From the IMG/VR virus record IMGVR_UViG_2721755658_000002: a stretch of 34,014 bases of DNA; one strand, given 5' to 3'. Made by a program: the position numbers and the translations under genes. Positions within the stretch are counted from its first letter, which is position 1; each line of letters starts with the position of its first letter. This stretch comes from a virus (taxonomy: Duplodnaviria > Heunggongvirae > Uroviricota > Caudoviricetes). Positions 3,888 to 27,859 of the stretch are shown in pieces. The notes beneath the pieces are model-generated. The model saw only the letters and a program-made list of their open reading frames with translations. It was not told the origin of the DNA and searched no databases.

Positions 3888-5195
3888 TTAAATCCGAAGT
3901 GATGTGACTCTTCCGGTCGGTTTGACAATAGGGAATTGCTTAACGATGAAATAACCTCCGGCATCATTCGGGTGATCATTGCCAGATTTTTTATCAGGCT
4001 CCCCCTTCTCATCCCAGACCTGTTGCTCCAGAGATTCGGCATATAACGGGCAACGCTTCACATTAACTTTATAGCGACGCTCACCATTGGCATTGCAGAA
4101 CATTGCATTCATTGAGTTAACGCGATCTTTTACTGGCGGGTTCGAGCTGTTCACCACAACGTTAAAACCAGCCTGCTTAAGCTGGGCTATATCCGTCGTA
4201 CTTGCGTTACTTGATTTTCTGGAATCCCCGGAAGCATCTGGATAAATATAAATTTCCCTCACTTTCCGGTAATCATTCCCATCATACAGCCAGAAGCGTT
4301 CTTTAATGATGCGGATCATATCCGGCGTATCGTAGGCATTGATGATTTCAGTTACCGCACATGGAAGCCCCAAACGCAGCACATGGACGATTCCCGCCAT
4401 CTTTCCAACGTTAAAATCCATCCCAATATAAATCGGCTCCCCTGGCTGCTCCACTTCTTCGCAATTATTCAGTTTCCGGTCAAACTGATGGTAAACAGTA
4501 CCACTTGTCAGGTTAGTAAACTGTCCTCGAAGATAGGCTTTAATCAGCTCTGGAGGGTATGATTCAAGAAGCGAAGGAATGTAATCTGCTGGCAGGTTCT
4601 TTTCATTATCGAAAGTAGATGCCTGCACCAGACCATACAGTGAGGCCAGCTCTGTTTTTTCACGCACGGCTTTAACAAACTGCTCGTAGACAAATTTGAA
4701 TCCTTCCGGCGTGGTTGTAACGTCAATACCGTTGCGAAGTCCATCAATCTTATAACGCATACGTGCAATTATCTTGCGCCACGCCGTTCTGGCTTTTTCC
4801 TTCGGCAAAATGTCCAGTTCATCCACCAACGCATTACCAATTTTGAAACCGACGATCGTTTGTGGCTTCTCCATCGATCTGCAGATAGTGGTTCCCCGAT
4901 ACTGGCGTCCGTAATAAAAGTGAACCTCTTTATTTCCCTCATTAATTTTTACGTTCAATCCCCAGTCAGCAGCAACTTCTTCTACTGTAGGGTAAAAAAT
5001 ATCGCGAATTTGGGGATACGTTGGCGCAAAATATCCCTGATTTATACCTGGATGCTCCCAAATCCCCTTGCATATGCCGCCACACCCAACCCATATTTTG
5101 CCCGAGCCAAAACCAGCAATATAGGCTTTAAATTTATGGGGCATTGAAAGAAATCGCGCCTGAGGCACATTAAGCGTCGGAGAGATCATCTTCAT
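3888..5195 (-). CDS. terminase large subunit
   Basis: 435-aa ORF with Walker-A-like GFGSGK near N-terminus; start set to the first ATG (5193-5195) rather than the GTG at 5198; directly follows the small subunit. Confidence 0.75.
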   Translation of the reverse strand: MKMISPTLNVPQARFLSMPHKFKAYIAGFGSGKIWVGCGGICKGIWEHPGINQGYFAPTYPQIRDIFYPTVEEVAADWGLNVKINEGNKEVHFYYGRQYRGTTICRSMEKPQTIVGFKIGNALVDELDILPKEKARTAWRKIIARMRYKIDGLRNGIDVTTTPEGFKFVYEQFVKAVREKTELASLYGLVQASTFDNEKNLPADYIPSLLESYPPELIKAYLRGQFTNLTSGTVYHQFDRKLNNCEEVEQPGEPIYIGMDFNVGKMAGIVHVLRLGLPCAVTEIINAYDTPDMIRIIKERFWLYDGNDYRKVREIYIYPDASGDSRKSSNASTTDIAQLKQAGFNVVVNSSNPPVKDRVNSMNAMFCNANGERRYKVNVKRCPLYAESLEQQVWDEKGEPDKKSGNDHPNDAGGYFIVKQFPIVKPTGRVTSLRI

Positions 5196-6264
5196 CACTC
5201 CTTACTCTGGCATCAACCACATTAATATTGATCGCCACAGGCTGGGGATGTTCATTATCTTCCACCGTTTCGATCTCTTTGCGCAGCTTCTGGTTTTCCA
5301 TTCTGCGCCGTTCAATTTCCAGTTCCTGTAGCCGTTTATCTGCACATAAAGCCCCGCCAGCAGAAAACAAACGCAACAATTCACGCCGGGCGGCAGCCTT
5401 ATCCTCCAGCAGGATCTCAACGCCGAATTTTCCGAATTTTGCCCCTGCATATAATTGCCGCGCATCCCCATCAAGCAGAGTGGTATCAGCCATATAAAGC
5501 TGTCCCGTTCCCTCACCGCAGCACTTCGGGCAGTCCGGATTGGGTATGGCGTTATCAACAAAGCCGAGGCCTCCATATTCCGGTTCGGGTTTGCCATCTC
5601 TGGAAGCCTGCGCCGCTGCCTTGTCGAATTCTGCTATATCGCGCCACTGGTAGAGATGATTCTCGCCCCAGCAATAACGGCAGTTAACACGGCGAAATTG
5701 TGCAAGCTGATTGGGGTCGGCCAGGACAATAGCCATCAACTGACTCACTAGTAAATCCAGGTCTGCGGTATAGCGTTTCTGGTACTGATTGCGGAAGTAG
5801 CTGATAGCGCGAAAAACCCTGGCATTTCTAAGCATACGACTGGCGTTGCTGTTAGCTGTCGCACCTTGCCCCTCATAACCGGCTAGTCGGTACGCCTCTG
5901 TCGGCTTTTTACCCTGAGCAACAAGCATCGCAAACTTAGCCTGCTGGTCAGAAATGCCGAATTCATCGGGACAGAACGAAAATTCCTCCGCGTCGCCCTC
6001 ATTCAGGCCCGCATCGAATACTGGCTTTTTTTCCTGAGATTTTTCGTTCCGCTTTTGTGCAGTCTGCGCAGATTTTTTCTGCGCACTTTTTTGCGCAGTT
6101 TTGCACATTTCTGTCTGCGCATTTTTCGGAGTTTTTTTGATGTAACGACGGGCTGTTGCGTAATTCAGTCCCCTTGCTTCACACCATGCCACCGGAGATA
6201 TACCGGAGCGGGTGTATTCAGCAATATACTCCTGCTGCAACGCCCCCCAGTCCGGTCTGCTCAT
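5170..6264 (-). CDS. terminase small subunit-like protein with N-terminal HTH-like region and C-terminal Cys4 motif
   Basis: Central segment ...AKFAMLVAQGKKPTEAYRLAGYEGQGATANSNASRMLRNARV... resembles small terminase family motifs; CRYC...CPKCC cysteine pairs; SD AGGA before ATG at 6264. Confidence 0.55.
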   Translation of the reverse strand: MSRPDWGALQQEYIAEYTRSGISPVAWCEARGLNYATARRYIKKTPKNAQTEMCKTAQKSAQKKSAQTAQKRNEKSQEKKPVFDAGLNEGDAEEFSFCPDEFGISDQQAKFAMLVAQGKKPTEAYRLAGYEGQGATANSNASRMLRNARVFRAISYFRNQYQKRYTADLDLLVSQLMAIVLADPNQLAQFRRVNCRYCWGENHLYQWRDIAEFDKAAAQASRDGKPEPEYGGLGFVDNAIPNPDCPKCCGEGTGQLYMADTTLLDGDARQLYAGAKFGKFGVEILLEDKAAARRELLRLFSAGGALCADKRLQELEIERRRMENQKLRKEIETVEDNEHPQPVAININVVDARVRSDEDDLSDA

Positions 6265-6267
6265 CAG

Positions 6268-6519
6268 TTAGTCCTGATTTTTATCCACCCTGAGTAGTTC
6301 GCGCAGAGCAAAGGCATCCCCTTTTCTGGCAAGCTTAAACAATGCCGCTCGTAACTCGGCTTCACCTTTCGCTCTGCCCTTACGGATGGCCGCATAAAAA
6401 TCTGTCATTGCTTCCCGATTTTCTTTCAGTCGGTTCAGATCAACATCCAGAACGTCAGCGATTTGTTGTGCAGTCATCCGGCACGCTGCCAGAGACTCGA
6501 CTTTCGAATACGGAATCAT
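6268..6519 (-). CDS. small hypothetical protein (83 aa)
   Basis: ORF with SD GGGGGTGA 3 nt before the ATG; stop TAA three nt before the small terminase ATG; function unknown. Confidence 0.35.
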   Translation of the reverse strand: MIPYSKVESLAACRMTAQQIADVLDVDLNRLKENREAMTDFYAAIRKGRAKGEAELRAALFKLARKGDAFALRELLRVDKNQD

Positions 6520-7387
6520 TTGTCACCCCCATTGATATGCAGGGTGTCTTCTTCCTGTATTTTTCGTGAAGGATTTTTACTGCAGCGTTGTTCCAGGTGA
6601 CCTGATGGTGAATGCGTTTATGGCTGGCACCCATCAGTGAGATTTTTACGCACGACGGCGCATACATGACGGAGTAAAAACTTTTAACGTAGGTTCCGGA
6701 ATCCAGATACAGCTCGGTCATTCCGCCGCTGTTTTTCTGCGTCTGTTTCTGCCCTAACTGGACAGCACCGATCGTCATAAACAATTCACCACAGCGACCG
6801 AGATTCGTGTACGTATTCACATCCTCGTTAATGCGCCCCATGAATGAGAACGGTCGATCAACCGAACAGATAAAGCTGTTCATTGCCTTGCGTTTCACCC
6901 ACGAAGCATGGCCGCCATTGTCACCAAGAAAATCCCCGCCCTGCGACATAGCGATGGAAAGAGCAGGTATTGATTCGTAGTACGCCAGCATTTCAGAAAG
7001 GATCGCATCCAGTTTCCTTATCGGAAAATAGGCCTGGTCATAGTTGCGATCCACCCGAAACTGGAACTCGTGATAATCATCATCGAGCTGAATGAAGTAT
7101 TTACACCCGACCAGTTTTGCCAGGTCGAAACAGGCATTACGGGCGTAAAAAATTGAGCGGCGGTCACAGAAATTATCGGCTTCGTCAAAACGACTGGCGA
7201 TATCGGCTTTGGAAAACACCAGCACCTGTTCACCAAATTCAGCCATGTACTGATTCCGTGTCTTATCTTCATCATCAACAACGATAAAAATTTTCCCGGT
7301 ATAGCCAGCACGACGCAACGTCCGGTAAGTCAGAACTTTGTCCGGTCGCCCGTGAGTCAGAATAAAGGCGCAAAAATCATCACGCAT
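6455..7387 (-). CDS. GT-A-fold-like (nucleotide-sugar transferase-like) protein, translationally coupled to the upstream ParB-like gene
   Basis: Start ATG 7385-7387 preceded by GAGGAGG and overlapping the ParB-like stop by 8 nt; motifs FILTHGRPD...KIFIVVDDEDKT and LDDDYHEF resemble GT-A DxD signatures; no TM segments evident. Confidence 0.4.
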   Translation of the reverse strand: MRDDFCAFILTHGRPDKVLTYRTLRRAGYTGKIFIVVDDEDKTRNQYMAEFGEQVLVFSKADIASRFDEADNFCDRRSIFYARNACFDLAKLVGCKYFIQLDDDYHEFQFRVDRNYDQAYFPIRKLDAILSEMLAYYESIPALSIAMSQGGDFLGDNGGHASWVKRKAMNSFICSVDRPFSFMGRINEDVNTYTNLGRCGELFMTIGAVQLGQKQTQKNSGGMTELYLDSGTYVKSFYSVMYAPSCVKISLMGASHKRIHHQVTWNNAAVKILHEKYRKKTPCISMGVTNDSVFESRVSGSVPDDCTTNR

Positions 7388-8171
7388 ATTCCTCCTCCTC
7401 ACCACCATGCATGATCTCCACCATGCGCTGCGTCATCCGGACAAATCCATTTTCAATAGCCTGCTGATAATCAATGATCACCAGCGCCGACTCCTCGAAA
7501 AAACACTGAATTTCAGAGGGGGCGTGAGCGTAATAGTCCGCAATTCTGCTGAAATTAAACACCGTGTGACGTTCTGCCGCACACAGGAGGAATTTCTCAA
7601 TATCAGGCTCAAGGGACGCCGAACGTATCCGGCTGATCAGCTCCTGAGTTTTCGTATCGTCGTACAGTTCACTGATATCCGGTTTACCGCCCGACGGCTC
7701 ATAAACAGGCGTATCAATTTTCGTCGTATACGGCTCCTCCTCATTTCCTGTACCGGGCAAAACATCCGTCAACAGTTCATCAATTTCTGTCGGGATGAAG
7801 CCTGTCAGGGAGACATCAAAATCAGCATTGATTAGGTCCGACAGCTCCATCCGCAACAGATCTTCATCCCAGCCAGCATTCATCGGCAGGCGATTATCTG
7901 CCAGGCGGTACGCCTTTTTCTGCTCATCCGTCAGGCCAGACAGAACAATGACCGGAACAGAATCCATTTTGAGCATTTCAGCCGCCATAACACGACCGTG
8001 ACCCGCAATAATTTCGCCCTTTTCGTCAATCAGCACCGGATTAGTCCAGCCGAATTGCTTAATACTTTCTACCAGTTGTGCCACCTGCTCAGGGCTGTGC
8101 GTCCTGGCGTTGTGCGCATACGGTGACAATTCTTGTAATGGGCGATAGACTATCTTTAATTTCTCGCTCAT
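7380..8171 (-). CDS. ParB/Srx N-terminal domain (ParB-like nuclease domain) protein
   Basis: N-terminal KLKIVYRPLQELSPYAHNARTHSPEQVAQLVESIKQFGWTNPVLIDEKGEIIAGHGRVMAA fits the ParB N-terminal domain pattern. Confidence 0.7.
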   Translation of the reverse strand: MSEKLKIVYRPLQELSPYAHNARTHSPEQVAQLVESIKQFGWTNPVLIDEKGEIIAGHGRVMAAEMLKMDSVPVIVLSGLTDEQKKAYRLADNRLPMNAGWDEDLLRMELSDLINADFDVSLTGFIPTEIDELLTDVLPGTGNEEEPYTTKIDTPVYEPSGGKPDISELYDDTKTQELISRIRSASLEPDIEKFLLCAAERHTVFNFSRIADYYAHAPSEIQCFFEESALVIIDYQQAIENGFVRMTQRMVEIMHGGEEEEYA

Positions 8172-8308
8172 ACAGCCTTGCTTTATGAATAAAACGCACC
8201 CCAGCAGCCAGTGCTACTGGGGACGGAGGGGTTGCTGGTAAAGTTAGGTATTGGATCAATGAGTGAGTCAACATAATATTAAACTCACAATTATAAATCA
8301 GCCATATA

Positions 8309-9766
8309 TTAGGAGCGCCAAAAAAAACCTGAAAACAATATAATAACAGGATAAATTTCAAGGCGACCAAGAATCATAGCTATGCACATTAAACATTTTG
8401 CAATGTCATTAAGCACTCCGAATGACGATGCAGTAGCCCCAAAACCTAATCCCATATTATTAATACATGCAGCCACTGTTGCAAATGATGTAAGAAAATC
8501 ATATCCCATACCATTTAACACCAGTATAAAAAACACCGTGAAGAGAGTATAAAGAAAAAAGAAACTCCATACAGACCTCATTACACGATCTGTAACTATC
8601 TTCCCTCCTACATTTACACTCAACAACGCTCTGGGATGAGAAAGCTGATTTATCTCGTGTTTGCTTTGTTTGAAAAGTATAAGAAATCGAAGTGACTTAA
8701 TTCCACCACAAGTTGAACCTATACATCCCCCAAAGAAACTTGACAACAGCAAAAACACTATCGTGTGCGTGGGCCAACTTGCATAATCCTGCGTAGCTAA
8801 ACCATTATCAGTGAGCATGGAGCTGGCAAGAAAAAACGAATGAATAAAACTTCCATGCAAGTCATACATACCTATATGCCAGACCTGGAAAGAGGTAACA
8901 ATGATCACCCCTAAGGCTATTAACAGAAAGAAACGAAGTTCAATATCTCTGATTAAAGGTTTTATCGTTTTCCTGCTAATAACAATATACCAAAGAGTGA
9001 AGTTGAAAGCCGATAGCAGGGAAAAAGAACCAGCCACCAGCTCAACCAAATAGTTATTAAAATATCCGATACTCTCGCTATGAGTTGAGAAACCACCAAG
9101 CGAAACTGTGGAAATCCCGTGACAAATAGCATCAAACAAAGGCATTCCTGCAAGTCTATAACAGACAATACAAGCAATACCTAATAAAGAATAAGTTATC
9201 CACAGTGTCCGTGACGTATCGGCCAGGCGGGGAGTGAGTTTGTCATCCTTAAATGGCCCCGGCATTTCTGACTGATAAAGCTTTGCACCACCAATACCCA
9301 ATAATGGCAATACAGCAACCGCCAGAACAATAACTCCTAAACCACCTATAAAATTTAACTGTGACCGATAGTACAAATATGCCCGAGGTAATGAACTAAC
9401 ATCATCAATTACAGTTGCTCCTGTTGTTGTTATTCCAGAAACCCCTTCAAACAGAGCATCAATGAACGTTAAATTAAGTTCTGAGTCAATCCATAAAGGG
9501 AATGCACTAATAACAGAAAACAAAATCCAAAACATTACAATTATAATAAACCCATCACGGGTACGTAATTGAATGCCAGATTTCTTAGTTGTATACCACG
9601 CTCCGCCACCAATGCAAAAAAATATAACGAAAGTTATAAAGAAAACGAACAGGCTTTTTTCTTTATAAAACAATGCTACAACCATTGGTGGCAACATTGA
9701 AAGACTATAGAGCCAAACCAGGAACCCACACATATGAGTAACAACTCTTACATGAGATGTATTCAT
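8309..9766 (-). CDS. trkG: Trk-type K+ uptake membrane protein TrkG (prophage moron)
   Basis: 485-aa multi-TM protein from ATG at 9766 (MNTSHVRVVTHMCGFLVWLY...), matching Rac TrkG as recalled; flanked by AT-rich spacers. Confidence 0.88.
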   Translation of the reverse strand: MNTSHVRVVTHMCGFLVWLYSLSMLPPMVVALFYKEKSLFVFFITFVIFFCIGGGAWYTTKKSGIQLRTRDGFIIIVMFWILFSVISAFPLWIDSELNLTFIDALFEGVSGITTTGATVIDDVSSLPRAYLYYRSQLNFIGGLGVIVLAVAVLPLLGIGGAKLYQSEMPGPFKDDKLTPRLADTSRTLWITYSLLGIACIVCYRLAGMPLFDAICHGISTVSLGGFSTHSESIGYFNNYLVELVAGSFSLLSAFNFTLWYIVISRKTIKPLIRDIELRFFLLIALGVIIVTSFQVWHIGMYDLHGSFIHSFFLASSMLTDNGLATQDYASWPTHTIVFLLLSSFFGGCIGSTCGGIKSLRFLILFKQSKHEINQLSHPRALLSVNVGGKIVTDRVMRSVWSFFFLYTLFTVFFILVLNGMGYDFLTSFATVAACINNMGLGFGATASSFGVLNDIAKCLMCIAMILGRLEIYPVIILFSGFFWRS

Positions 9767-9903
9767 ATCTAAATATTCTTTCAATTATAACCACCTTGCT
9801 GCAATATTATGATTATACTGTATAAAATTTAACTCCTCTTAGATCTTACTTCACTGTTCCTTATGAAACAATCATCAAAATGAATCATATTGTAGTTAAG
9901 ATT

Positions 9904-11328: not shown

Positions 11329-11724
11329 CTAACCTCGCATGTCAAAGCCAGATTTCTGAAAATCTCTGTAGACTTCCGGATTGTTGAAGGCCGGAAATTT
11401 GGCTTTATGAGCTGCGGACTTTATCGCTTCGCAATAGGCTTTATCACCGTTACTGGTAGATATTTTTAACGCCGTGCCATCCTGAGAGAATTCCATATGC
11501 AACCTGCATTTTTTCCCTTTCCAGTTATGCGGCTCATCAAGTTTGGCATTAATTGCAGCTCTGATTCCCCGCGCTTGCGCCCCCCATTCATCCTGATCAT
11601 CCCAGCGTCCTGAACTGCAACTACCTGTAGCAGTAGTTTTGTGGCAATCTGAAGGGTGTAAAGGTGTGCATCCCGCAACAAAACCGACCCAAAAAGTCAA
11701 CATAACGATTTTCTTTAATCCCAC
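11329..11724 (-). CDS. outer-membrane-type lipoprotein with divergent TolA domain-III-like C-terminal domain
   Basis: GTG start with GAGGAG SD; signal peptide MGLKKIVMLTFWVGFVAGC; C-terminal ...KKCRLHMEFSQDGTALKIS...CEAIKSAAHKAKFPAFNNPEVYRDFQ... shares the conserved pattern of its neighbour and of TolA C-terminus. Confidence 0.6.
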   Translation of the reverse strand: MGLKKIVMLTFWVGFVAGCTPLHPSDCHKTTATGSCSSGRWDDQDEWGAQARGIRAAINAKLDEPHNWKGKKCRLHMEFSQDGTALKISTSNGDKAYCEAIKSAAHKAKFPAFNNPEVYRDFQKSGFDMRG

Positions 11725-11874: not shown

Positions 11875-12303
11875 TCAGGGTTTAAAATCCAGCACCCCAT
11901 TTTGAAATACTTTATATACTTCCGGCGAAGGGGGGGCAGGTATATCAGCATTCTTTATCGCATTCATCGCTTCACGACATAAATCGAGGTCTCCACTTTC
12001 TCTTTTAACCTCCAGTAGAAGGCCATTCGGGGCCATATGCATTCTCAGTGTACACTCTTTTCCTGAATACTTACTCGCATCCCCGAACTGTTTTTCGATG
12101 GCGCTCTTGATTTGATGGGCATACAGACGGATATCCTCACTAACATCAGAAGTACGTTCAGATGAACTCACATACTGTGTCTCTATTGCTTTATCGGAGT
12201 AATATGATGTACGGTCATGATAATTTGTCGATACAGCATCAGTGCACCCGATAATAATCCCACTAATAATCAACGTAAGAATTGATGCGCTACGAAAACC
12301 CAT
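11875..12303 (-). CDS. outer-membrane-type lipoprotein with TolA domain-III-like C-terminal domain
   Basis: Signal peptide MGFRSASILTLIISGIIIGC; C-terminal YAHQIKSAIEKQFGDASKYSGKECTLRMHMAPNGLLLEVK...IPAPPSPEVYKVFQNGVLDFKP aligns closely with recalled E. coli TolA C-terminus (...YAGQIKSAIESKF...GKTCTLRIKLAPDGMLLDIK...VYEVFKNAPLDFKP). Confidence 0.7.
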   Translation of the reverse strand: MGFRSASILTLIISGIIIGCTDAVSTNYHDRTSYYSDKAIETQYVSSSERTSDVSEDIRLYAHQIKSAIEKQFGDASKYSGKECTLRMHMAPNGLLLEVKRESGDLDLCREAMNAIKNADIPAPPSPEVYKVFQNGVLDFKP

Positions 12304-16120: not shown

Positions 16121-17320
16121 ATGCCATTTGTTATTTATGTGTTTACTATCAGTGCCTTTGCGCTCGGACTCGCGGAATTTGTCCCCATTGGGCTGACAGA
16201 CGTTATGGCTCAGGGGTTGTGTGTGGGTGTGGAGCAGACCGGGGCAGCGGTTACAACCTATGCACTGGGGGCAACGTTCGCGGCACCCGTACTGTCTGCG
16301 CTGACAGCAAGCTGGAGCCGGAAAAATGTAATGCTTACAACTGCCGTTGTGTTTACTGCCGGTAGTCTGGCGGCCGCGTTTGCAGCCACATTACCTCAGC
16401 TCCTGTTAGCGCGGTTCATTGCTGGTCTGGGACACGGCCTGTTTCTGGCTGCGGCATCCAGTACCGCAGCTCGTCTTGCTGGACCGGGTAAAGCAGGCAG
16501 AGCGGTGGCTGTGGTATTTGGTGGCTTTACTCTGGCGATGGCAATCGGCGTACCGCTGAGTACATGGTTGGGGGGGGTGGTCTCATGGCGTCCAGTTCTC
16601 GGCGCTATTGCCGCTTTTGGCGCGTTCGGATTCCTTGGACTGTTGTTCGGTATGAAAGATCCCGTACGCAGCGTGCCCGGTGAACATAGTGACTCAGCAA
16701 TGCAGAATATCGGCATGCTGTTTAACCGTAAGTTGCTGGCCGGCGCGCTGGTTACGGTGCTGGCGTATGCAGGCTCGTTTACGGATTACACCTTTATCGC
16801 ACCTATTCTGACGCAGGTGACAGGGGTTACCGGAGCAACGGTGAGTCTGTTTATGCTGGTTTACGGTATTACAGCTGCGGTAGGTAATATTCTTGGTGGG
16901 AAACTTACCGACAGCATGGGGGTTAATCGTGCCAATATACTCATCATTAGCGGCATTGTTGTTGTCGTGCTTGGTATGTGGCTGCTGTCATCCTCACCGG
17001 TGAGCATGGGCATTCTGGTTGCGCTGCTGGGTATGGTGACATTTGCCGCAGTGCCGGCACTGCAGGCCCGTCTGATTGGTGTCGCTGAGCAACATGCTCC
17101 TCATGCGCATGGTGTTGCTGCCGGCCTGAATATTGCGGGCTTCAACTCAGGTATAGCGCTGGGATCAGTACTGGGCAGCATTACTATAAGCCACGCCGGT
17201 ATCGTGTATACCGGTATCAGCGGTGCGATTGTTTCTCTGCTCGGCCTGCTGTTGCTGCTTGCACAAATCCGTCGCAGCCACAGTCGTAAATTTCAACAGG
17301 TTAAAATCGTAGGCCAGTAA
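16121..17320 (+). CDS. MFS family transporter
   Basis: 399 aa, about 12 predicted hydrophobic helices, Gly/Ala-rich MFS-like composition; SD AGGAG. Confidence 0.75.
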   Translation: MPFVIYVFTISAFALGLAEFVPIGLTDVMAQGLCVGVEQTGAAVTTYALGATFAAPVLSALTASWSRKNVMLTTAVVFTAGSLAAAFAATLPQLLLARFIAGLGHGLFLAAASSTAARLAGPGKAGRAVAVVFGGFTLAMAIGVPLSTWLGGVVSWRPVLGAIAAFGAFGFLGLLFGMKDPVRSVPGEHSDSAMQNIGMLFNRKLLAGALVTVLAYAGSFTDYTFIAPILTQVTGVTGATVSLFMLVYGITAAVGNILGGKLTDSMGVNRANILIISGIVVVVLGMWLLSSSPVSMGILVALLGMVTFAAVPALQARLIGVAEQHAPHAHGVAAGLNIAGFNSGIALGSVLGSITISHAGIVYTGISGAIVSLLGLLLLLAQIRRSHSRKFQQVKIVGQ

Positions 17321-17331
17321 AGGGAGGTTAT

Positions 17332-18024
17332 ATGCTTACCCGTGAAAATATGCTTAATGGCACATTTGTCAGGGTGCATGAAGCGCTGCTCCCGGCGAAT
17401 ATGCTCTGGGACGCTGAAAAAATACGCGCATCAATGAACTCTACTCTGGAGGAGCGCCCGACGGGTGCTCCTGTCTGGATATTTGCCTACGGGTCATTGA
17501 TGTGGAATCCCGTGCTGGCGATTGAAGAAATGCAACGGGCCCGTCTGAAAGGATGGCAGCGCAGTTTCTGCATTCGTTTGATATCCGGACGAGCGACTCC
17601 TGATGTCCCCGGCAGGATGTTATCGCTCGACGAAGGTGGAATTACCGAAGGTATTGCGTTCAGACTGCCGGAATCGACTCTTATTAATGAGCTGGAAATT
17701 GTCTGGACGCGCGAGATGATAACCGGTCTTTACCGTCCGGTCTGGGCAGACGTTTCGCTAGGAAACGGTGAGGAAATTCAGGCGCTGGCTTTCGTATCAG
17801 ACAGACTGCATCCGCATTATGAACAGGACAATCTTACAGCGACCGTAGCGTTGAGCATCGCATCTGCCCGTGGAGACATTGGCACGAATGCAGATTATGT
17901 ATGGAAACTGCAGGCCACTCTGGGTGCGTTGGGAATACGGGATGATTACGTGAGTGAACTGGCCCTTGCTCTGCATGAGGCTCCCTGTAACGATAAACTT
18001 CATCAGCGAGGCGCTTCACTATGA
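17332..18024 (+). CDS. ChaC-like gamma-glutamylcyclotransferase family protein
   Basis: 230 aa with VWIFAYGSLMWNP motif and overall similarity to recalled E. coli ChaC; SD GGGAGG. Confidence 0.75.
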   Translation: MLTRENMLNGTFVRVHEALLPANMLWDAEKIRASMNSTLEERPTGAPVWIFAYGSLMWNPVLAIEEMQRARLKGWQRSFCIRLISGRATPDVPGRMLSLDEGGITEGIAFRLPESTLINELEIVWTREMITGLYRPVWADVSLGNGEEIQALAFVSDRLHPHYEQDNLTATVALSIASARGDIGTNADYVWKLQATLGALGIRDDYVSELALALHEAPCNDKLHQRGASL

Positions 18025-18902
18025 GCCATCTGAGCCATCTGCGAACGTTTCTTGAGGCCTATCGCTCTGGCTCCTTTTCAAAGGCGGCAGAACTACTGGG
18101 CATCACTCAGCCCGCGGCGTCACAGCATATCCAGTCTCTTGAGACTCTGGTTGGTAAGCGTCTGTTTATCAGGCAGGCCAGAGGCGTGACGGCAACCGAA
18201 GCTGCGGATGAGCTTGCCCGCTCAGTTTCACCCTTCATTGATGGTCTGGAAGAAAAGCTGTCCTCTTTCCGGTCAGGCTCTGTACGCGGGGGAACAATTA
18301 ATCTGGCAGGACCGCCAGATTTTATTCATTCCCGGCTTGGGACAGTAATGGCTCCACTAATGAAGGAGGGTTATCGCCTACGCTTTCATACCGGCAATAA
18401 GCAACGTATTTATTCCCTTTTGCATGACGGGAGCGCCGATCTCGCTGTTACCGCATCTATGCCTGATGACCGTCTGTACGGCTATGCACATCTACTGACT
18501 GAACGCATGCTCCTTGTTCATGCTCCCGCCATGTCAGAGATCATCGGATCAGAACCTGGTGCTGAAACGCTTGCCTCATTACCGCTGATTGCTTATGACG
18601 AAGAGTTGCCACTGATTAGAGCGCTCTGGGCCTCCATGTTTCAGAGAGCCCCTGAGATGCAGGCTACATTCACCATTCCGGATTTACGTATTATCCGCGA
18701 CTTGGTCTGTGACGGCCACGGGTGGACAGTGCTGCCGGATTATCACTGTGACAATGACCTGAAAAGTGGTCGCCTGATTTCAGTGACACCTGCAGACCTC
18801 GCTCCGACTAATCATCTTTATCTGGTCTGGAACAAAAGGACGGCTAATAACAGCCGAACCGCCTATGTTCGGGATTACATTCTTAAAACGTTTCCGCGTT
18901 GA
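18021..18902 (+). CDS. LysR-family transcriptional regulator
   Basis: N-terminal HTH LRTFLEAYRSGSFSKAAELLGITQPAASQHIQSLE typical of LysR regulators; ATGA overlap with upstream gene. Confidence 0.8.
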   Translation: MSHLSHLRTFLEAYRSGSFSKAAELLGITQPAASQHIQSLETLVGKRLFIRQARGVTATEAADELARSVSPFIDGLEEKLSSFRSGSVRGGTINLAGPPDFIHSRLGTVMAPLMKEGYRLRFHTGNKQRIYSLLHDGSADLAVTASMPDDRLYGYAHLLTERMLLVHAPAMSEIIGSEPGAETLASLPLIAYDEELPLIRALWASMFQRAPEMQATFTIPDLRIIRDLVCDGHGWTVLPDYHCDNDLKSGRLISVTPADLAPTNHLYLVWNKRTANNSRTAYVRDYILKTFPR

Positions 18903-18946
18903 TGTTTGAAACGGATGATTGGCGATGCGTATCATAAGTTACGTAT

Positions 18947-18970
18947 GTCCGCTTCTGGCACAAAGCAGAC
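18947..18970. repeat. 24-bp palindrome GTCCGCTTCTGGCACAAAGCAGAC (copy 2 of 3)
   Basis: 20/24 identical to copy 3; lies between the convergent LysR and DUF2254 genes. Confidence 0.6.
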
Positions 18971-19032
18971 GCCCACTCTCACGCGAATGCTTTGCCCTTG
19001 ACTTGCCAACAACCGTATCGCTTGCTCCGCAA

Positions 19033-20310
19033 CTATGGTTTTTTATTAGAATCTTCGCCACTAAATAAATTATAATAAATTGATTTTATTAGATATCTGT
19101 CAGAATCTATATGGTCAGCACGAGTAGCATGCTCTAATGTTTCAAATGCTAGGGTTTGTGCGGCTTCAGCAAAAATTCCAGGCCAACCCTTACTCAGCAT
19201 CGACAGTCCTTTAAGTACCCTTATCTGAATTTCCCTCATACTGGCACCATCGCGCGCAACAGGTGAGAAAAAGTCTTCAAGTAGATCGTTATTCTGAAGT
19301 GGTGCAACATGTACAGAAGGATATTTCACTTCTATTTCATCAGATTTATTCTGCGCGTAAGCGGAAAGTATACGTACACCTCTGCCAATGACATCAATGG
19401 CGGTTCCAGGATCGTTCACTGCGGGGGAAAGGGCTCGGCAGGCTATTTCGGCCATGACGCTAAGACAAAATCGGGGGTCCTGAGCAAATGAACGTACATC
19501 CGAGACAATAATCGTCTCAAGTAAATCGGTGCTGATTGATGACTCCTGGCCCTGACTCAGGTACAAAACTGGCGTGGACGGATGTATGAAACTGCCCGGC
19601 TGCGCCACGAGGTATACATGACGGGGATCATTGGTCAGCAGCTTGCTGAGTTTCACCATATCAACATATTCAACATAGCCAATCTTTTTCGGATAAACTG
19701 CAACCGTTCCTTTCGGCTGTTCATTGTTCTCAAGCCATGGATATCCGCCGAGACAGGGATTTCTTGCTCTCGCAATAAATGTTTCGATGGCCGCCTGTTC
19801 TACTTTTGCCGTTGTCTCACCAACCCTCCCCAGAGAGGTCAAATGCTGTATCCAGCGAAGCAATGTGATGAGGATTAAGGCAATGACAACCAGTGTTACA
19901 ATGAATAAAATGACTCTCCCCCTTTCTCCATAAGCTCCCATATTGAGGGCAATAATCCCTACCAGACTGAAGAGAAAAGAACCGATGAAGGTGGCCAGTA
20001 CATTTTGTGTGGTGACGTCTTCAACAACTAAACGAGTAGCTCTGGGAGTCACATTAGTAGTGGCTGAACCGTAGGCTGTGACCATGATGCTCAGCGAAAA
20101 TGTGGTCACTGCCAGCATACTCGATGCCAGTATGTTCAGAATGTTATCGACTGCTTCCGCACCAACCTTCACGGAAACCGACTCAGGTATCATTGATTTA
20201 AAAAGAATTGATAAAAGGGCCGTTATTATTGCGACAATTGCGAATAACGTTGCCCTGAACCATAGTTTTTTAAATGTCTGCTTCAGCATCCATTTCCAGC
20301 GTGAAATCAT
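19033..20310 (-). CDS. DUF2254-like predicted membrane protein
   Basis: ORF with N-terminal TM helices; start set to ATG 20308-20310 (GAGGGAA upstream); alternative ATG at 20325. Confidence 0.5.
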   Translation of the reverse strand: MISRWKWMLKQTFKKLWFRATLFAIVAIITALLSILFKSMIPESVSVKVGAEAVDNILNILASSMLAVTTFSLSIMVTAYGSATTNVTPRATRLVVEDVTTQNVLATFIGSFLFSLVGIIALNMGAYGERGRVILFIVTLVVIALILITLLRWIQHLTSLGRVGETTAKVEQAAIETFIARARNPCLGGYPWLENNEQPKGTVAVYPKKIGYVEYVDMVKLSKLLTNDPRHVYLVAQPGSFIHPSTPVLYLSQGQESSISTDLLETIIVSDVRSFAQDPRFCLSVMAEIACRALSPAVNDPGTAIDVIGRGVRILSAYAQNKSDEIEVKYPSVHVAPLQNNDLLEDFFSPVARDGASMREIQIRVLKGLSMLSKGWPGIFAEAAQTLAFETLEHATRADHIDSDRYLIKSIYYNLFSGEDSNKKP

Positions 20311-20373
20311 TCTGCATTCCCTCATATTGCAGCCGGGATAAATAAATGCCGCCTCTGTGGCGGCATGTTGCTG

Positions 20374-22377
20374 TTAACGAACCAGATGCAGGAAGTGCAG
20401 GTGTTTTTCGTACTGGTCCAGTATGTCATTAATCAGCTGTTCCTGATTCCAGCCCATTACATCATAATTTTGGCCGCCCTCTTTGAGATAGACTTCAGCG
20501 CGATAATATCGATGTTGTTCACTCTGCTGCTCATCATTATCCAGCGCAGCGAGCGCGAAGGTCGGTGAGTTATACCCGCGAAGCCTCACTTCATATATAT
20601 AATTCAGCTCGTTGCCCAAATCGACTTCAAGGCGAATACGATCCTCGGCGGCGTCACTGATGTGGCTTATCGTTCCCTGCTTGTTAAGTTCCTCCTGAAC
20701 CAGCGTCATGGCGGGTTGGATAATGTCGTCCATAAAACGTTTCACAAGAGAGCGCTTCGGCAAATACGCGATATTGCGTAACCTTCTCTGCCAGGGAATT
20801 GGGTTACGTGCAGCCGTAGGAGCAATAGTCGCCATGCTAAGGCTTTCACGCTTGGTCAAATCCCGACGCAGGGCTTTTAACAGTCCGTATATGGATATTA
20901 ATAAGATAACTGAGAAGGGCAATGCACTCGCTATCGTTACGGTTTGCAACGCACTCAGCCCCCCTGCGATCAGCAGGGCAATAGCAACAACGCCCATGAG
21001 CGATGCCCAGAAAATTCGCTGCCAGACGGGCGTGTTTGCCACCCCACCTGATGCCAGAGTATCCACAACCATTGCCCCCGAATCAGCAGACGTTACAAAG
21101 AAGACGATGACCATCGCCATTGCAATGAATGACAGCACGGAAGAGAACGGGAAATGCTCCAGGAAATTAAACAGGGCAAGCGCAACATCCTGCTGAACGG
21201 TATTGGCGAGGTCAGTGGCGCCCTGGTTCATGATGAGATAGATGGCGCTGTTTCCAAACACCGTCATCCACATGAGCGTAAAGCCGGCGGGAACAAACAA
21301 CACGCCAGTCACGAACTCACGAATTGTCCTGCCGCGGGAAACGCGTGCAATGAACATACCTACAAACGGCGACCATGAAAGCCACCATCCCCAGTATAAT
21401 AATGTCCAGCCCCCCAGCCAGTTGCTCGACTTGGGTTCATACGCGTAAAGGTTGAACGTTTTACTCACCAGTTCCGACAGATAACCACCCGTATTTTCCA
21501 CAAATGACTTCAGCAGAAGCACAGTGGGACCCAGGCACAAGACCAGCGCCAGGAGCAACACCGCCAGGCCCAGATTAAGCTCAGACAGGATGCGTATTCC
21601 CTTGTCCAGGCCGGACACCACCGAAATCGTCGCTAACCCCGTGATGACCACGATCAAAATGACCTGTACCGTTTCATTGATGGGCACGCCGAAAAGATGG
21701 TTCAAACCGGCATTCACCTGCAATACACCGTAACCCAGCGATGTTGCAACGCCAAAGACAGTGCCTATCACGGCGAAGATATCAACCGCGTGGCCTATAG
21801 GCCCGTAAATGCGATCGCCGATAATGGGATAGAGCGCAGAACGCAGCGTTAAAGGCAGACCGTGACGGTAACTGAAAAAGGCCAGAATCAGCGCCACGAT
21901 GGCATAAATTGCCCATGCGTGCAGACCCCAGTGGAAGAACGTCAGGCGCATGGCTTCCTTCGCTGCCGCAACGGTCTCTGGAGTGCCGACAGGTGGCGAA
22001 AGATAATGCATCACAGGTTCGGCAACGCCAAAGAACATCAGGCCGATCCCCATCCCTGCCGAAAAAAGCATCGCGAACCAGGAGTGGTAGCTGAAATCAG
22101 GCTGCGCATGGTCTGGGCCCAGCTTTATATCACCGTAACGTGAGAGTCCAAGGAACGTGACGCTCAGTAAAATCAGGGCCACAGCAAGTATGTAGAACCA
22201 GCTGGCATTCGTGAAGATTTGTTGCTGAAGTAGTTTAAAATTTTTGTCGGCGACATCCGGGAATACGGCGGCAAAGGCGACAAGAAGGAAAATTAGCAAA
22301 GCAGATGTAAAGAATACCGCTTTGTTAATCTGGCTTGTAGACTTCTTTGGGGTTGTATCATTTTCACTCATAATCAT
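20374..22377 (-). CDS. BCCT-family transporter (BetT-like choline/betaine transporter)
   Basis: 667 aa multi-TM; C-terminal ...QEQLINDILDQYEKHLHFLHL... resembles BetT C-terminal extension as recalled; start may be the ATG at 22371. Confidence 0.8.
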   Translation of the reverse strand: MIMSENDTTPKKSTSQINKAVFFTSALLIFLLVAFAAVFPDVADKNFKLLQQQIFTNASWFYILAVALILLSVTFLGLSRYGDIKLGPDHAQPDFSYHSWFAMLFSAGMGIGLMFFGVAEPVMHYLSPPVGTPETVAAAKEAMRLTFFHWGLHAWAIYAIVALILAFFSYRHGLPLTLRSALYPIIGDRIYGPIGHAVDIFAVIGTVFGVATSLGYGVLQVNAGLNHLFGVPINETVQVILIVVITGLATISVVSGLDKGIRILSELNLGLAVLLLALVLCLGPTVLLLKSFVENTGGYLSELVSKTFNLYAYEPKSSNWLGGWTLLYWGWWLSWSPFVGMFIARVSRGRTIREFVTGVLFVPAGFTLMWMTVFGNSAIYLIMNQGATDLANTVQQDVALALFNFLEHFPFSSVLSFIAMAMVIVFFVTSADSGAMVVDTLASGGVANTPVWQRIFWASLMGVVAIALLIAGGLSALQTVTIASALPFSVILLISIYGLLKALRRDLTKRESLSMATIAPTAARNPIPWQRRLRNIAYLPKRSLVKRFMDDIIQPAMTLVQEELNKQGTISHISDAAEDRIRLEVDLGNELNYIYEVRLRGYNSPTFALAALDNDEQQSEQHRYYRAEVYLKEGGQNYDVMGWNQEQLINDILDQYEKHLHFLHLVR

Positions 22378-27091: not shown

Positions 27092-27146
27092 GGTGATGCT
27101 GCCAACTTACTGATTTAGTGTATGATGGTGTTTTTGAGGTGCTCCA

Positions 27147-27422
27147 GTGGCTTCTGTTTCTATCAGCTGTCCCTCCTGTTCAGCTACTGACGGGGTGGTG
27201 CGTAACGGCAAAAGCACCGCCGGACATCAGCGCTATCTCTGCTCTCACTGCCGTAAAACATGGCAACTGCAGTTCACTTACACCGCTTCTCAACCCGGTA
27301 CGCACCAGAAAATCATTGATATGGCCATGAATGGCGTTGGATGCCGGGCAACAGCCCGCATTATGGGCGTTGGCCTCAACACGATTTTACGTCACTTAAA
27401 AAACTCAGGCCGCAGTCGGTAA
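27147..27422 (+). CDS. insA: IS1 InsA
   Basis: Identical translation to copy A InsA. Confidence 0.93.
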
Positions 27423-27844
27423 CCTCGCGCATACAGCCGGGCAGTGACGTCATCGTCTGCGCGGAAATGGACGAACAGTGGGGATACGTCGGGGCTAAAT
27501 CGCGCCAGCGCTGGCTGTTTTACGCGTATGACAGGCTCCGGAAGACGGTTGTTGCGCACGTATTCGGTGAACGCACTATGGCGACGCTGGGGCGTCTTAT
27601 GAGCCTGCTGTCACCCTTTGACGTGGTGATATGGATGACGGATGGCTGGCCGCTGTATGAATCCCGCCTGAAGGGAAAGCTGCACGTAATCAGCAAGCGA
27701 TATACGCAGCGAATTGAGCGGCATAACCTGAATCTGAGGCAGCACCTGGCACGGCTGGGACGGAAGTCGCTGTCGTTCTCAAAATCGGTGGAGCTGCATG
27801 ACAAAGTCATCGGGCATTATCTGAACATAAAACACTATCAATAA
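27341..27844 (+). CDS. insB: IS1 InsB reading frame
   Basis: Identical translation to copy A InsB. Confidence 0.92.
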
Positions 27845-27859
27845 GTTGGAGTCATTACC

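Follow-up and report, generated by a model that had tools for sequence, protein, structure and literature searches.

A TAGT-family glycosyltransferase and its ParB-like partner, encoded as a translationally coupled pair near phage terminase genes: a candidate DNA glycosylation cassette

The Locus and the Coupled Gene Pair

The stretch of tailed phage DNA analyzed here (34,014 nt; IMG/VR record IMGVR_UViG_2721755658_000002; hereafter "the window", with position 1 being its first letter) carries two adjoining minus-strand genes that are the subject of this work: the upstream one (7380-8171, as delimited in the list of open reading frames (ORFs)) encodes a ParB-like protein of 263 aa, the intact form of Escherichia coli K-12 ynaK, and the downstream one (6455-7387) encodes a 310-aa protein falling into the TET-associated glycosyltransferase (TAGT) family, for which RefSeq uses the same start and which it labels a "hypothetical protein" (WP_001204037.1). 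If read from its first ATG, the TAGT ORF would span 6455-7408 and encode 317 aa, an alternative start to the 310-aa form.

At the junction of the two genes, which on the minus strand reads GGT GGT GAG GAG GAG GAA TAT GCG TGA, the ATG of the TAGT gene (7387-7385) and the TGA of the partner gene (ending at 7380) have an 8-nt overlap, ATGCGTGA, in common, and a Shine-Dalgarno-like purine run, GAGGAGGAGGAA, is found at 7389-7400, just 1 nt before that ATG. The run stems from the EEEE codons of the acidic C-terminal tail of the partner, GGEEEEYA (7383-7406, minus strand), the codons of which double as the Shine-Dalgarno sequence, and both acidic partner tails and purine-rich sequences preceding the TAGT ATG are seen again in relatives. 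As these codons serve as the TAGT ribosome-binding site, the conservation of the tail at homologous positions in the loci gathered for comparison (L002-L100) may partly reflect such a use, and not the function of the protein itself. An earlier note on this DNA had proposed the 310-aa start, the 8-nt overlap and the Shine-Dalgarno sequence without stating the strand, and had taken them to imply co-expression; the former three can be read directly on the minus strand, and the latter is backed by an overlap of the partner stop and the TAGT start being kept in 39/41 non-redundant loci of unrelated phages (8 nt in 19 and 11 nt in 16 of them), so that the coupling is not a matter of chance. Loci were regarded as non-redundant when sharing less than 90% TAGT identity, and there are 36 such loci among the first 90 gathered (L001-L090).

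The TAGT-Family Glycosyltransferase

The 310-aa protein matched Pfam family PF20691 (TET-associated glycosyltransferase) over residues 15-229 with 121 bits (cutoff 27.5; E 8.4e-35) and phrog_842 at 1.2e-103, both of which class it as a glycosyltransferase and not as a nucleotidyltransferase. Whereas an AlphaFold2 (AF2) model from the single sequence was unusable (pLDDT 37.7), the one made from an alignment of 74 diverse homologues (pLDDT 87.6, pTM 0.83) showed a globular GT-A fold without a long helical segment. Across these 74 sequences, 38 positions are invariant, including R14, D38, D41, D102-D103-D104, K167, D189 (within INEDVN) and H261, while E188 is conserved in at least 90% of them and the residue following this ED pair is a valine here. 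The DXD motif (D102-D103-D104; codons at 7076-7084, minus strand; invariant in our alignments A1, A2 and A3) comes after beta4, with the strand E97-101 of the model preceding it, and the residues listed match the R...DDD...ED(Y/F) active-site motif described for experimentally active phage DNA GT-A enzymes and the kinetoplastid glycosyltransferase JGT (10.1101/2023.12.21.572611). As an ED-type acidic pair is located some 85 residues after the DXD motif, the sequence suggests an inverting mechanism, and the best explanation for the protein, judging from its sequence and model, seems to be a soluble GT-A glycosyltransferase using a nucleotide-sugar donor and belonging to the TAGT/JGT clade, the characterized members of which glycosylate DNA of phages or kinetoplastids. 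The GT-A guess of the earlier note, made from the acidic stretches VVDDEDKT (residues 36-43) and LDDDYHEF (residues 101-108), has thus held up in terms of family, fold and the conservation of the acidic residues, with no unrelated family being matched.

That such an enzyme modifies no macromolecule at all, and either hydrolyzes NDP-sugars or transfers the sugar to a small molecule or nucleotide (e.g., draining UDP-glucose or altering a signalling nucleotide in order to blunt host defence, with the ParB fold of the partner being an NTP-binding regulator), seems to be very improbable: the Pfam/PHROG assignment is firmly to glycosyltransferases, no known anti-defence family was matched, PADLOC included, and the fixed place of the genes at the packaging module (see below) would be left unexplained. 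A reading of the pair as a defence system carried by the prophage was dropped, since TAGT had no match among the PADLOC defence systems.

The TAGT family encompasses the T2/T6 beta-glucosyl-HMC-alpha-glucosyltransferase as well as the GT-A DNA glycosyltransferases of phage C5-methyltransferase/5mYOX dioxygenase clusters, with which the protein studied here shares the family match, the GT-A fold, the R...DDD...ED pattern and the appearance of a soluble phage enzyme of about 285 aa; unlike in those systems, however, neither an alpha- or beta-glucosyltransferase, nor hydroxymethylcytosine synthesis, nor a 5mYOX gene was detected beside our gene pair. The T-even name attached to TAGT via PHROG 842/RefSeq had to be rejected, as the T2/T6 enzyme is too distant to be found by tblastn (36 phage records were retrieved at 1e-5, no T-even phage among them) and no alpha-glucosyltransferase or hydroxymethylase gene was found in the prophage that the window represents. 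Comparison of the TAGT profile with PDB sequences gave chance-level matches only, and the structural match to a T4-like homologue had an E value of 1e-7 at 12% identity. Kinetoplastid JGT and GREB1, going by their descriptions in the literature, belong to the same GT-A clade and have the same active-site motif; JGT, however, acts on 5-hydroxymethyluracil (5hmU) made by JBP1/2, GREB1 is reported to be a protein O-GlcNAc transferase, and neither has a ParB-like partner. The sub-clade to which our protein belongs also differs from other TAGTs in being unusually conserved (40-66% identity across domains of life) and in always following the partner domain described below.

Residues ~281-310 of the E. 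coli form make up a C-terminal extension (6455-6547, minus strand), which is lineage-specific and of low confidence in the model (pLDDT <60), with relatives ending at about 285-290 aa without it. It is encoded where the TAGT gene overlaps a small downstream ORF, and may be a by-product of this overlap.

The ParB-like Partner and Its C-Terminal Domain

The earlier note had recognized a ParB N-terminal domain in the 263-aa protein, and rightly so: the partner scored 28.9 bits against Pfam ParB_N (cutoff 26.3; E 1.2e-6) and 8.5e-91 against phrog_620, and its profile matched the Noc, Spo0J and ParB entries of PDB over residues 4-96 at 5e-11 to 1e-8 (e.g., Noc 4.9e-11 and Spo0J 1.3e-10), with the matches essentially confined to the N-domain apart from a weak extension in Noc. 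In an alignment of 30 diverse partner proteins (A4), the architecture consists of this ParB/Srx (CTPase-fold) N-domain (residues ~1-100; 7872-8171, minus strand), a very acidic linker, a C-terminal domain (CTD) at residues ~147-250 and an acidic tail. The N-domain features HNARTH (box I-like), IIAGHGR (box II) and LADN (box III-like); of the residues that bind and hydrolyze nucleotides in canonical ParB, R23 is found here, N21 is kept throughout the alignment and R60 and N93 almost so, while the Glu and the first Arg of the box II GERRxR are replaced, giving G-H-G-R.

The most conserved part of alignment A4, above even the ParB domain, is the CTD (7422-7733, minus strand), an acidic domain of about 105-115 aa running in the window as YTTKIDTPVYEP...AAERHTVFNF...IADYYAHA...SALVIID...AIENG and following the pattern YTxKIxxPxYEPxGxKP...FLxxAAxRHTVFNFxKIADYYAHA...SALVIID..AIENG. 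The partner profile gave no significant PDB match for the CTD, a Pfam search with eight CTD sequences at E<=5 returned sub-threshold noise only and hence no Pfam family, and residues 147-263 of the partner matched neither a methyltransferase nor anything else in Pfam. In a protein library clustered at 50% the domain has 1189 representatives, nearly always C-terminal in proteins of 250-300 aa. When separate HMMs (hidden Markov models) for the N-domain and the CTD were used to find the invariant neighbour of TAGT, it turned out to be the CTD and not ParB_N (see the counts below), which, together with the second protein belonging to a family that already had a name, goes beyond what the earlier note had seen.

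The N-terminal ~145 residues of the partner are homologous to the N-module of phage DNA methyltransferases (PADLOC MTase_II, 2.2e-38; phrog_498, 1.2e-50), sharing 30-54% identity with annotated Streptococcus and Ruminococcus phage methylases, and orphan ParB-CTPase folds fused to methyltransferases have been described in prophages by Kaljevic et al. The partner differs from these fusions in that the CTD takes the place of the methyltransferase domain and that catalysis is predicted to reside on a separate, translationally coupled polypeptide. Another arguably instructive parallel is found among phage thymine dioxygenases, one subclass of which (5mYOX176) was shown experimentally to require a cognate ParB-like protein (ParB176) for activity on dsDNA; in that protein a nucleotide-binding domain is joined to a C-terminal domain, and a recognizable DNA-binding domain is missing (O'Toole et al., PNAS 2026, PMC13229309). 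In terms of architecture, our partner is likewise an orphan ParB-like protein (N-domain, linker, CTD) with no recognizable DNA-binding domain, its gene likewise adjoins that of a predicted DNA-modifying enzyme, and 5mYOX176-type pairs, too, are often found near a terminase, whereas the enzyme here is a glycosyltransferase and not a dioxygenase.

With the partition proteins ParB, as well as Noc and KorB, the partner shares the N-domain fold and the box I and box III-like residues, yet, unlike partition ParB, it has GHGR in place of GERR, is strongly acidic, and lacks both a helix-turn-helix (HTH)/parS-binding domain and an accompanying ParA gene. A partition function was consequently rejected, the late-operon position between trkG and TAGT being a further reason, and the GenBank label "chromosome (plasmid) partitioning protein" is misleading for a protein without a ParA gene, HTH or GERR.

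Distribution and Conservation of the Cassette

The same order and overlap of the two genes were found in Lactobacillus gasseri phage phi jlb1, haloarchaeal virus HHTV-2, Nocardia phage NTR1 and a Porphyromonas phage; in Lactobacillus delbrueckii phage c5 the pair constitutes ORF1 and ORF2, directly after cos, and it is also present in unrelated metagenomic phages. In tblastn comparisons, most of the viruses encode a TAGT sharing 40-47% identity with that of E. coli, with lower values for Porphyromonas phages (27.5%) and Lactobacillus phage Ld17 (32%). A partner homologue was located immediately upstream of TAGT in 35/36 non-redundant loci from among L001-L090. A species scan (one genome per species) returned 80 cassette loci from Enterobacteriaceae, Bacteroidota, Clostridia, Veillonella, Desulfovibrionaceae, Planctomycetota, Verrucomicrobiota, Acidobacteriota, Alphaproteobacteria, Saccharibacteria and one archaeon, and the CTD was directly 5' of TAGT in 79/79 informative ones (66 with a ParB N-domain, 7 CTD-only, 5 cut by a contig end and 1 arranged as TAGT-CTD-TAGT), as it was in all but one of the 45 loci obtained outside the scan; a stand-alone CTD gene is seen in Vibrio phages, L095 and L096. 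Relative to the genes of the window, dN was 0.14-0.37 and dS was saturated for both genes, which leaves dN/dS ratios mostly not computable; still, the sequences are indicative of strong purifying selection acting on both. All in all, the pair appears, from its distribution, to be a conserved mobile cassette, and the co-function that the earlier note had thought probable is in agreement with the co-occurrence of the two genes and their absolute synteny among distant viruses.

This breadth also speaks against the cassette glycosylating the cell envelope in a serotype-converting manner, as prophage TarP or Gtr do, thus giving superinfection exclusion. We consider this exceedingly improbable and have rejected it, as the cassette is conserved across host kingdoms: proteins with 40-47% identity are found in viruses of Gram-negative, Gram-positive and haloarchaeal hosts, the envelopes of which share no acceptor. 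Moreover, the modelled fold, globular and with no long helical segment, does not speak for it, the cassette is always paired with the ParB-like CTD, and its site is a late/packaging operon behind a terminator and not a lysogenic-conversion locus.

Some of the cassettes are more elaborate (L096:9233-13555, L099:8052-10855, L129, L170). In one of them, from a phage encoding its own DNA polymerase, two stand-alone CTD genes are accompanied by a TAGT-TAGT fusion, a radical SAM gene and a third TAGT; in another, a radical SAM gene is located two genes 5' of the pair, and tandem arrays of both the CTD-TAGT-CTD-TAGT and the TAGT-CTD-TAGT kind were found. ParB-TAGT fusions were looked for among long "TAGT" proteins, all of which proved to be either TAGT-TAGT tandems or truncated chimeras. 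A Firmicutes-type phage (L091-L093:5817-10846, 16673-17632) has genes for three ParB_N proteins (200, 500 and 258 aa), for a SAM methyltransferase and for a PAPS-reductase-like protein in the surroundings of the cassette, and there the CTD is restricted to the ParB_N protein adjoining TAGT. Yet another cassette (L121) resides on the 49,973-bp Virgibacillus plasmid pCBA3643-01 (NZ_CP097348.1), deposited as a plasmid and possibly a phage-plasmid.

Genomic Position beside the Packaging Genes

The cassette is mostly followed by the terminase genes, 0-3 kb downstream of it. The window is no exception, with the terminase small subunit (TerS) gene at 5170-6264 (minus strand; Pfam Terminase_2, phrog_51) and the large subunit gene at 3888-5198 (minus strand; Pfam Terminase_6N and Terminase_6C), and the wording "immediately upstream of the terminase genes" in the earlier note is nearly right, except that a small ORF (6268-6519, minus strand; 83 aa, or 69 aa in RefSeq; phrog_309 at 8.3e-23, part of TerS) intervenes before TerS. 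This ORF overlaps the 3' end of the TAGT gene by 65 nt (23 nt with the RefSeq start), and ORFs of about 85 aa occupy its position in L047-L064, so it is kept in enterobacterial relatives and falls outside the cassette elsewhere. On the other side, upstream of the pair, are the trkG moron and lysis genes, and a strong terminator-like hairpin with a T-run (8199-8222, minus strand; a 10-bp stem with 7 GC pairs, then TGCGTTTTAT) ends the trkG moron (8309-9784) 28 nt before the partner start, so we infer that the pair is read within the late operon by antiterminated transcription through this hairpin.

The large terminases adjoining the cassette represent at least four families (Terminase_6N, Terminase_3, TerL_ATPase and GpA) from both cos and headful phages, which means that the cassette moves independently of the packaging machinery, and the terminase, portal and capsid types beside it vary widely, while its place at the head of the late/packaging operon is kept. 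The exceptions are the 191-kb Vibrio phages and contig L096, where the cassette is found among replication genes, and L098, where no recognizable terminase was seen near it.

The surroundings also bear on whether TAGT might glycosylate a protein, the candidate acceptors being the partner itself (e.g., the YTxKIxxPxYEP segment of the CTD, which is conserved and Tyr/Thr-rich), a packaging or virion protein or a host protein, in which case the ParB-like protein would be a substrate or adaptor and not a DNA loader. The report of protein glycosylation by the TAGT homologue GREB1 (PMC7968844) lends this some plausibility, and it counts against DNA being the target. Nevertheless, we find it unlikely: a ParB N-domain like that found in the DNA methyltransferase fusions is retained by around 85-90% of the partners, the nearest characterized relatives of TAGT act on DNA, and, with the adjoining virion genes being so varied, no conserved virion acceptor is evident besides the partner.

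Proposed Function

The scenario that we tentatively favour, giving it slightly under an even chance, is that the cassette is a ParB-assisted two-protein module that glycosylates DNA late in infection, using an acceptor other than the classic 5-hydroxymethylcytosine (5hmC) or 5hmU. TAGT would be responsible for catalysis, probably an inverting sugar transfer from a UDP-sugar, and would be made 1:1 with the partner by translational coupling; the CTD would be a dedicated subunit that binds TAGT and activates or targets it; the ParB N-domain would couple the enzyme to dsDNA in an NTP-gated manner; and, as the cassette heads the packaging operon, the replicated phage DNA would be modified by the module shortly before packaging or in the course of it, with protection from host nucleases as the likely benefit. 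Such a scheme retains the DNA- or packaging-linked modification, or anti-restriction role, that the earlier note had inferred. The occurrence of the cassette in viruses of Gram-negative and Gram-positive bacteria as well as archaea speaks in its favour, as it points to a universal acceptor. So do the invariant catalytic residues, the linkage of the CTD to TAGT, the overlap of the two genes, the type of the N-domain, the precedent of 5mYOX176, the place beside terminases of several families and the purifying selection. Glycosylation of phage DNA is a main means of escape from restriction, and is itself targeted by type IV enzymes and DNA glycosylases.

Several observations weigh against it, most of all those concerning the source of an acceptor. 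The window contains no gene for a TET/JBP dioxygenase, a thymidylate-synthase-like hydroxymethylase or a DNA methyltransferase, none is annotated in the complete 31.8-kb genome of phage c5, and there was no Tet_JBP match in the Pfam-annotated contexts (+-10 kb or less); this check consisted of Pfam matches and record annotations, which a very divergent hydroxylase could escape. To our knowledge, every characterized DNA glycosyltransferase requires a hydroxymethyl-base handle, and the main weakness of the scheme is that, without one, no known DNA glycosyltransferase reaction applies. Furthermore, roughly 10% of the cassettes have no ParB N-domain, so that a link to DNA is not obligatory, and the partner, a strongly acidic protein (median pI of 4.6 and a net charge of about -21, as against a mildly basic TAGT with a median pI of 8.5), has no DNA-binding domain recognizable by Pfam or PDB profile searches. 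Glycosyltransferases without 5mYOX/ThyS neighbours are also less obviously DNA-directed according to Pyle et al., who found GT-A enzymes of C5-methyltransferase/5mYOX clusters to glycosylate 5hmC and noted that such neighbours are absent from ~65% of the mined glycosyltransferase contigs (10.1101/2023.12.21.572611).

Alternatively, the enzyme might be a classical hydroxymethyl-pyrimidine glycosyltransferase, the substrate of which would come from an unrecognized phage or host hydroxylase or from a co-resident element, or the pair might be a substrate-less relic of a TET/JBP-glycosyltransferase system. The family is, after all, named for its TET/JBP association, with members glycosylating 5hmC, 5hmU or glucosyl-hydroxymethylcytosine; phage 5mYOX genes most commonly have glycosyltransferases, ParBs and terminases beside them (PMC13229309); and in L096 and L099 the cassette has radical SAM genes at its flanks. 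We nonetheless regard it as quite improbable, given that no 5mYOX or hydroxymethylase gene was seen among the Pfam matches and record annotations of the inspected contexts or complete genomes and that no enzyme family is recurrent among the upstream neighbours (101 upstream ORFs of 35 non-redundant loci, as judged by the 25 commonest Pfam families, a tally that a weak Tet_JBP could escape). ParB-dependent 5mYOX enzymes, moreover, are linked mainly to kinases, GATases and amino-acid transferases, glycosyltransferases being associated mainly with the ParB-independent subclass (PMC13229309), and a relic would sit badly with the strong purifying selection and the 38 invariant residues.

As neither a source of hydroxymethyl bases nor a recurrent upstream enzyme was found, the cassette seems to be self-contained, and the acceptor would have to be something other than the classic 5hmC/5hmU handle. 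The narrowest form of the DNA glycosylation scenario, about which we are rather doubtful, is that no prior hydroxymethylation is involved and the sugar is put directly on canonical DNA (a base, possibly the backbone), with the CTD as an obligatory activator; it would perhaps be sparse or site-specific and added as the DNA is being readied for packaging. All phage DNA glycosylation that we know of is on a hydroxylated base, and this would, if true, be the first known case of a sugar being put on unmodified DNA, encountered both in a common E. coli prophage and in bacterial and archaeal viruses.

The enzyme family and a general link to ParB were already known, and what we describe is an uncharacterized variant, i.e., a 5mYOX-free cassette with an unannotated partner domain. 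We found no paper on a ParB-TAGT pair without 5mYOX in the literature covered; a 2013 paper by Iyer et al., which reportedly defined the TAGT family, was outside that coverage and may note a ParB linkage. "Solitary" TAGT homologues of undefined function have been counted in 288/753 phage genomes encoding a T-even-type glycosyltransferase homologue (PMC13216743), and a large share of such "solitary" enzymes would thereby become a sharply defined two-protein cassette with a dedicated partner domain. Orphan ParB-fold proteins as accessories of DNA modification, hitherto seen as methyltransferase fusions and dioxygenase activators, would gain a glycosyltransferase partner, and two misleading labels ("partitioning protein" and "beta-glucosyl-HMC-alpha-glucosyltransferase") can be corrected. 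With the intact cassette being present in about 1/6 of the complete E. coli genomes, the question is directly testable in the best genetic system there is.

The Source Prophage and Its Other Features

A 2.1-kb region comprising the pair is 100% identical to many E. coli chromosomes; it was matched in 1609/5426 complete E. coli genomes, being covered by at least 80% in 866 of them (~16%), and ten phage records in GenBank contain it as well. The copy in E. coli SE11 is part of an intact Rac-type lambdoid prophage with the gene order recE, kilR, sieB, ydaU/V, Q-like, lysis, trkG, the pair, terminase, P22-type head and lambda-type tail, and the locus corresponds to an intact ynaK region of the Rac prophage. 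RefSeq names the partner "ynaK: ParB/Srx family N-terminal domain-containing protein", and ynaK of K-12 is a mere 87-aa remnant of the partner gene.

The remaining genes of the window are ordinary lambdoid early genes, lysis genes, transporter-type cargo and IS1. Two IS1 copies are in direct orientation (1-713, cut by the window start, and 27092-27859), and, as the inner end of the first one abuts a shortened scaffold-like ORF (709-1350; 213 aa versus 254 aa in SE11), this copy of the prophage is probably defective; the 26-kb segment between the two might act as a composite element. The prophage also harbours a cargo island (16121-22377), located between its Q-like region and its replication genes, with genes for an MFS transporter, a ChaC-like protein, a LysR regulator, a DUF2254 membrane protein and a BCCT betaine/choline transporter, and the corresponding site of SE11 is occupied by an IS3 and by genes for a TPR protein and a DUF262 (GmrS-like) protein (L001:29209-34130). 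Two small lipoprotein-like ORFs upstream of the lysis cassette (11329-11724 and 11875-12303), annotated as TolA C-terminal-domain proteins in SE11 by RefSeq, are possible superinfection-exclusion or colicin-related morons.

Finally, in many of the E. coli proteins in the databases (P0021-P0045; L048, L049, L052 and L084), TAGT breaks off at residue ~231-239 and continues into unrelated sequence, tail-fibre-type Pfam domains among it, which suggests a recurrent or widely inherited deletion endpoint within the TAGT gene of degraded Rac prophages.

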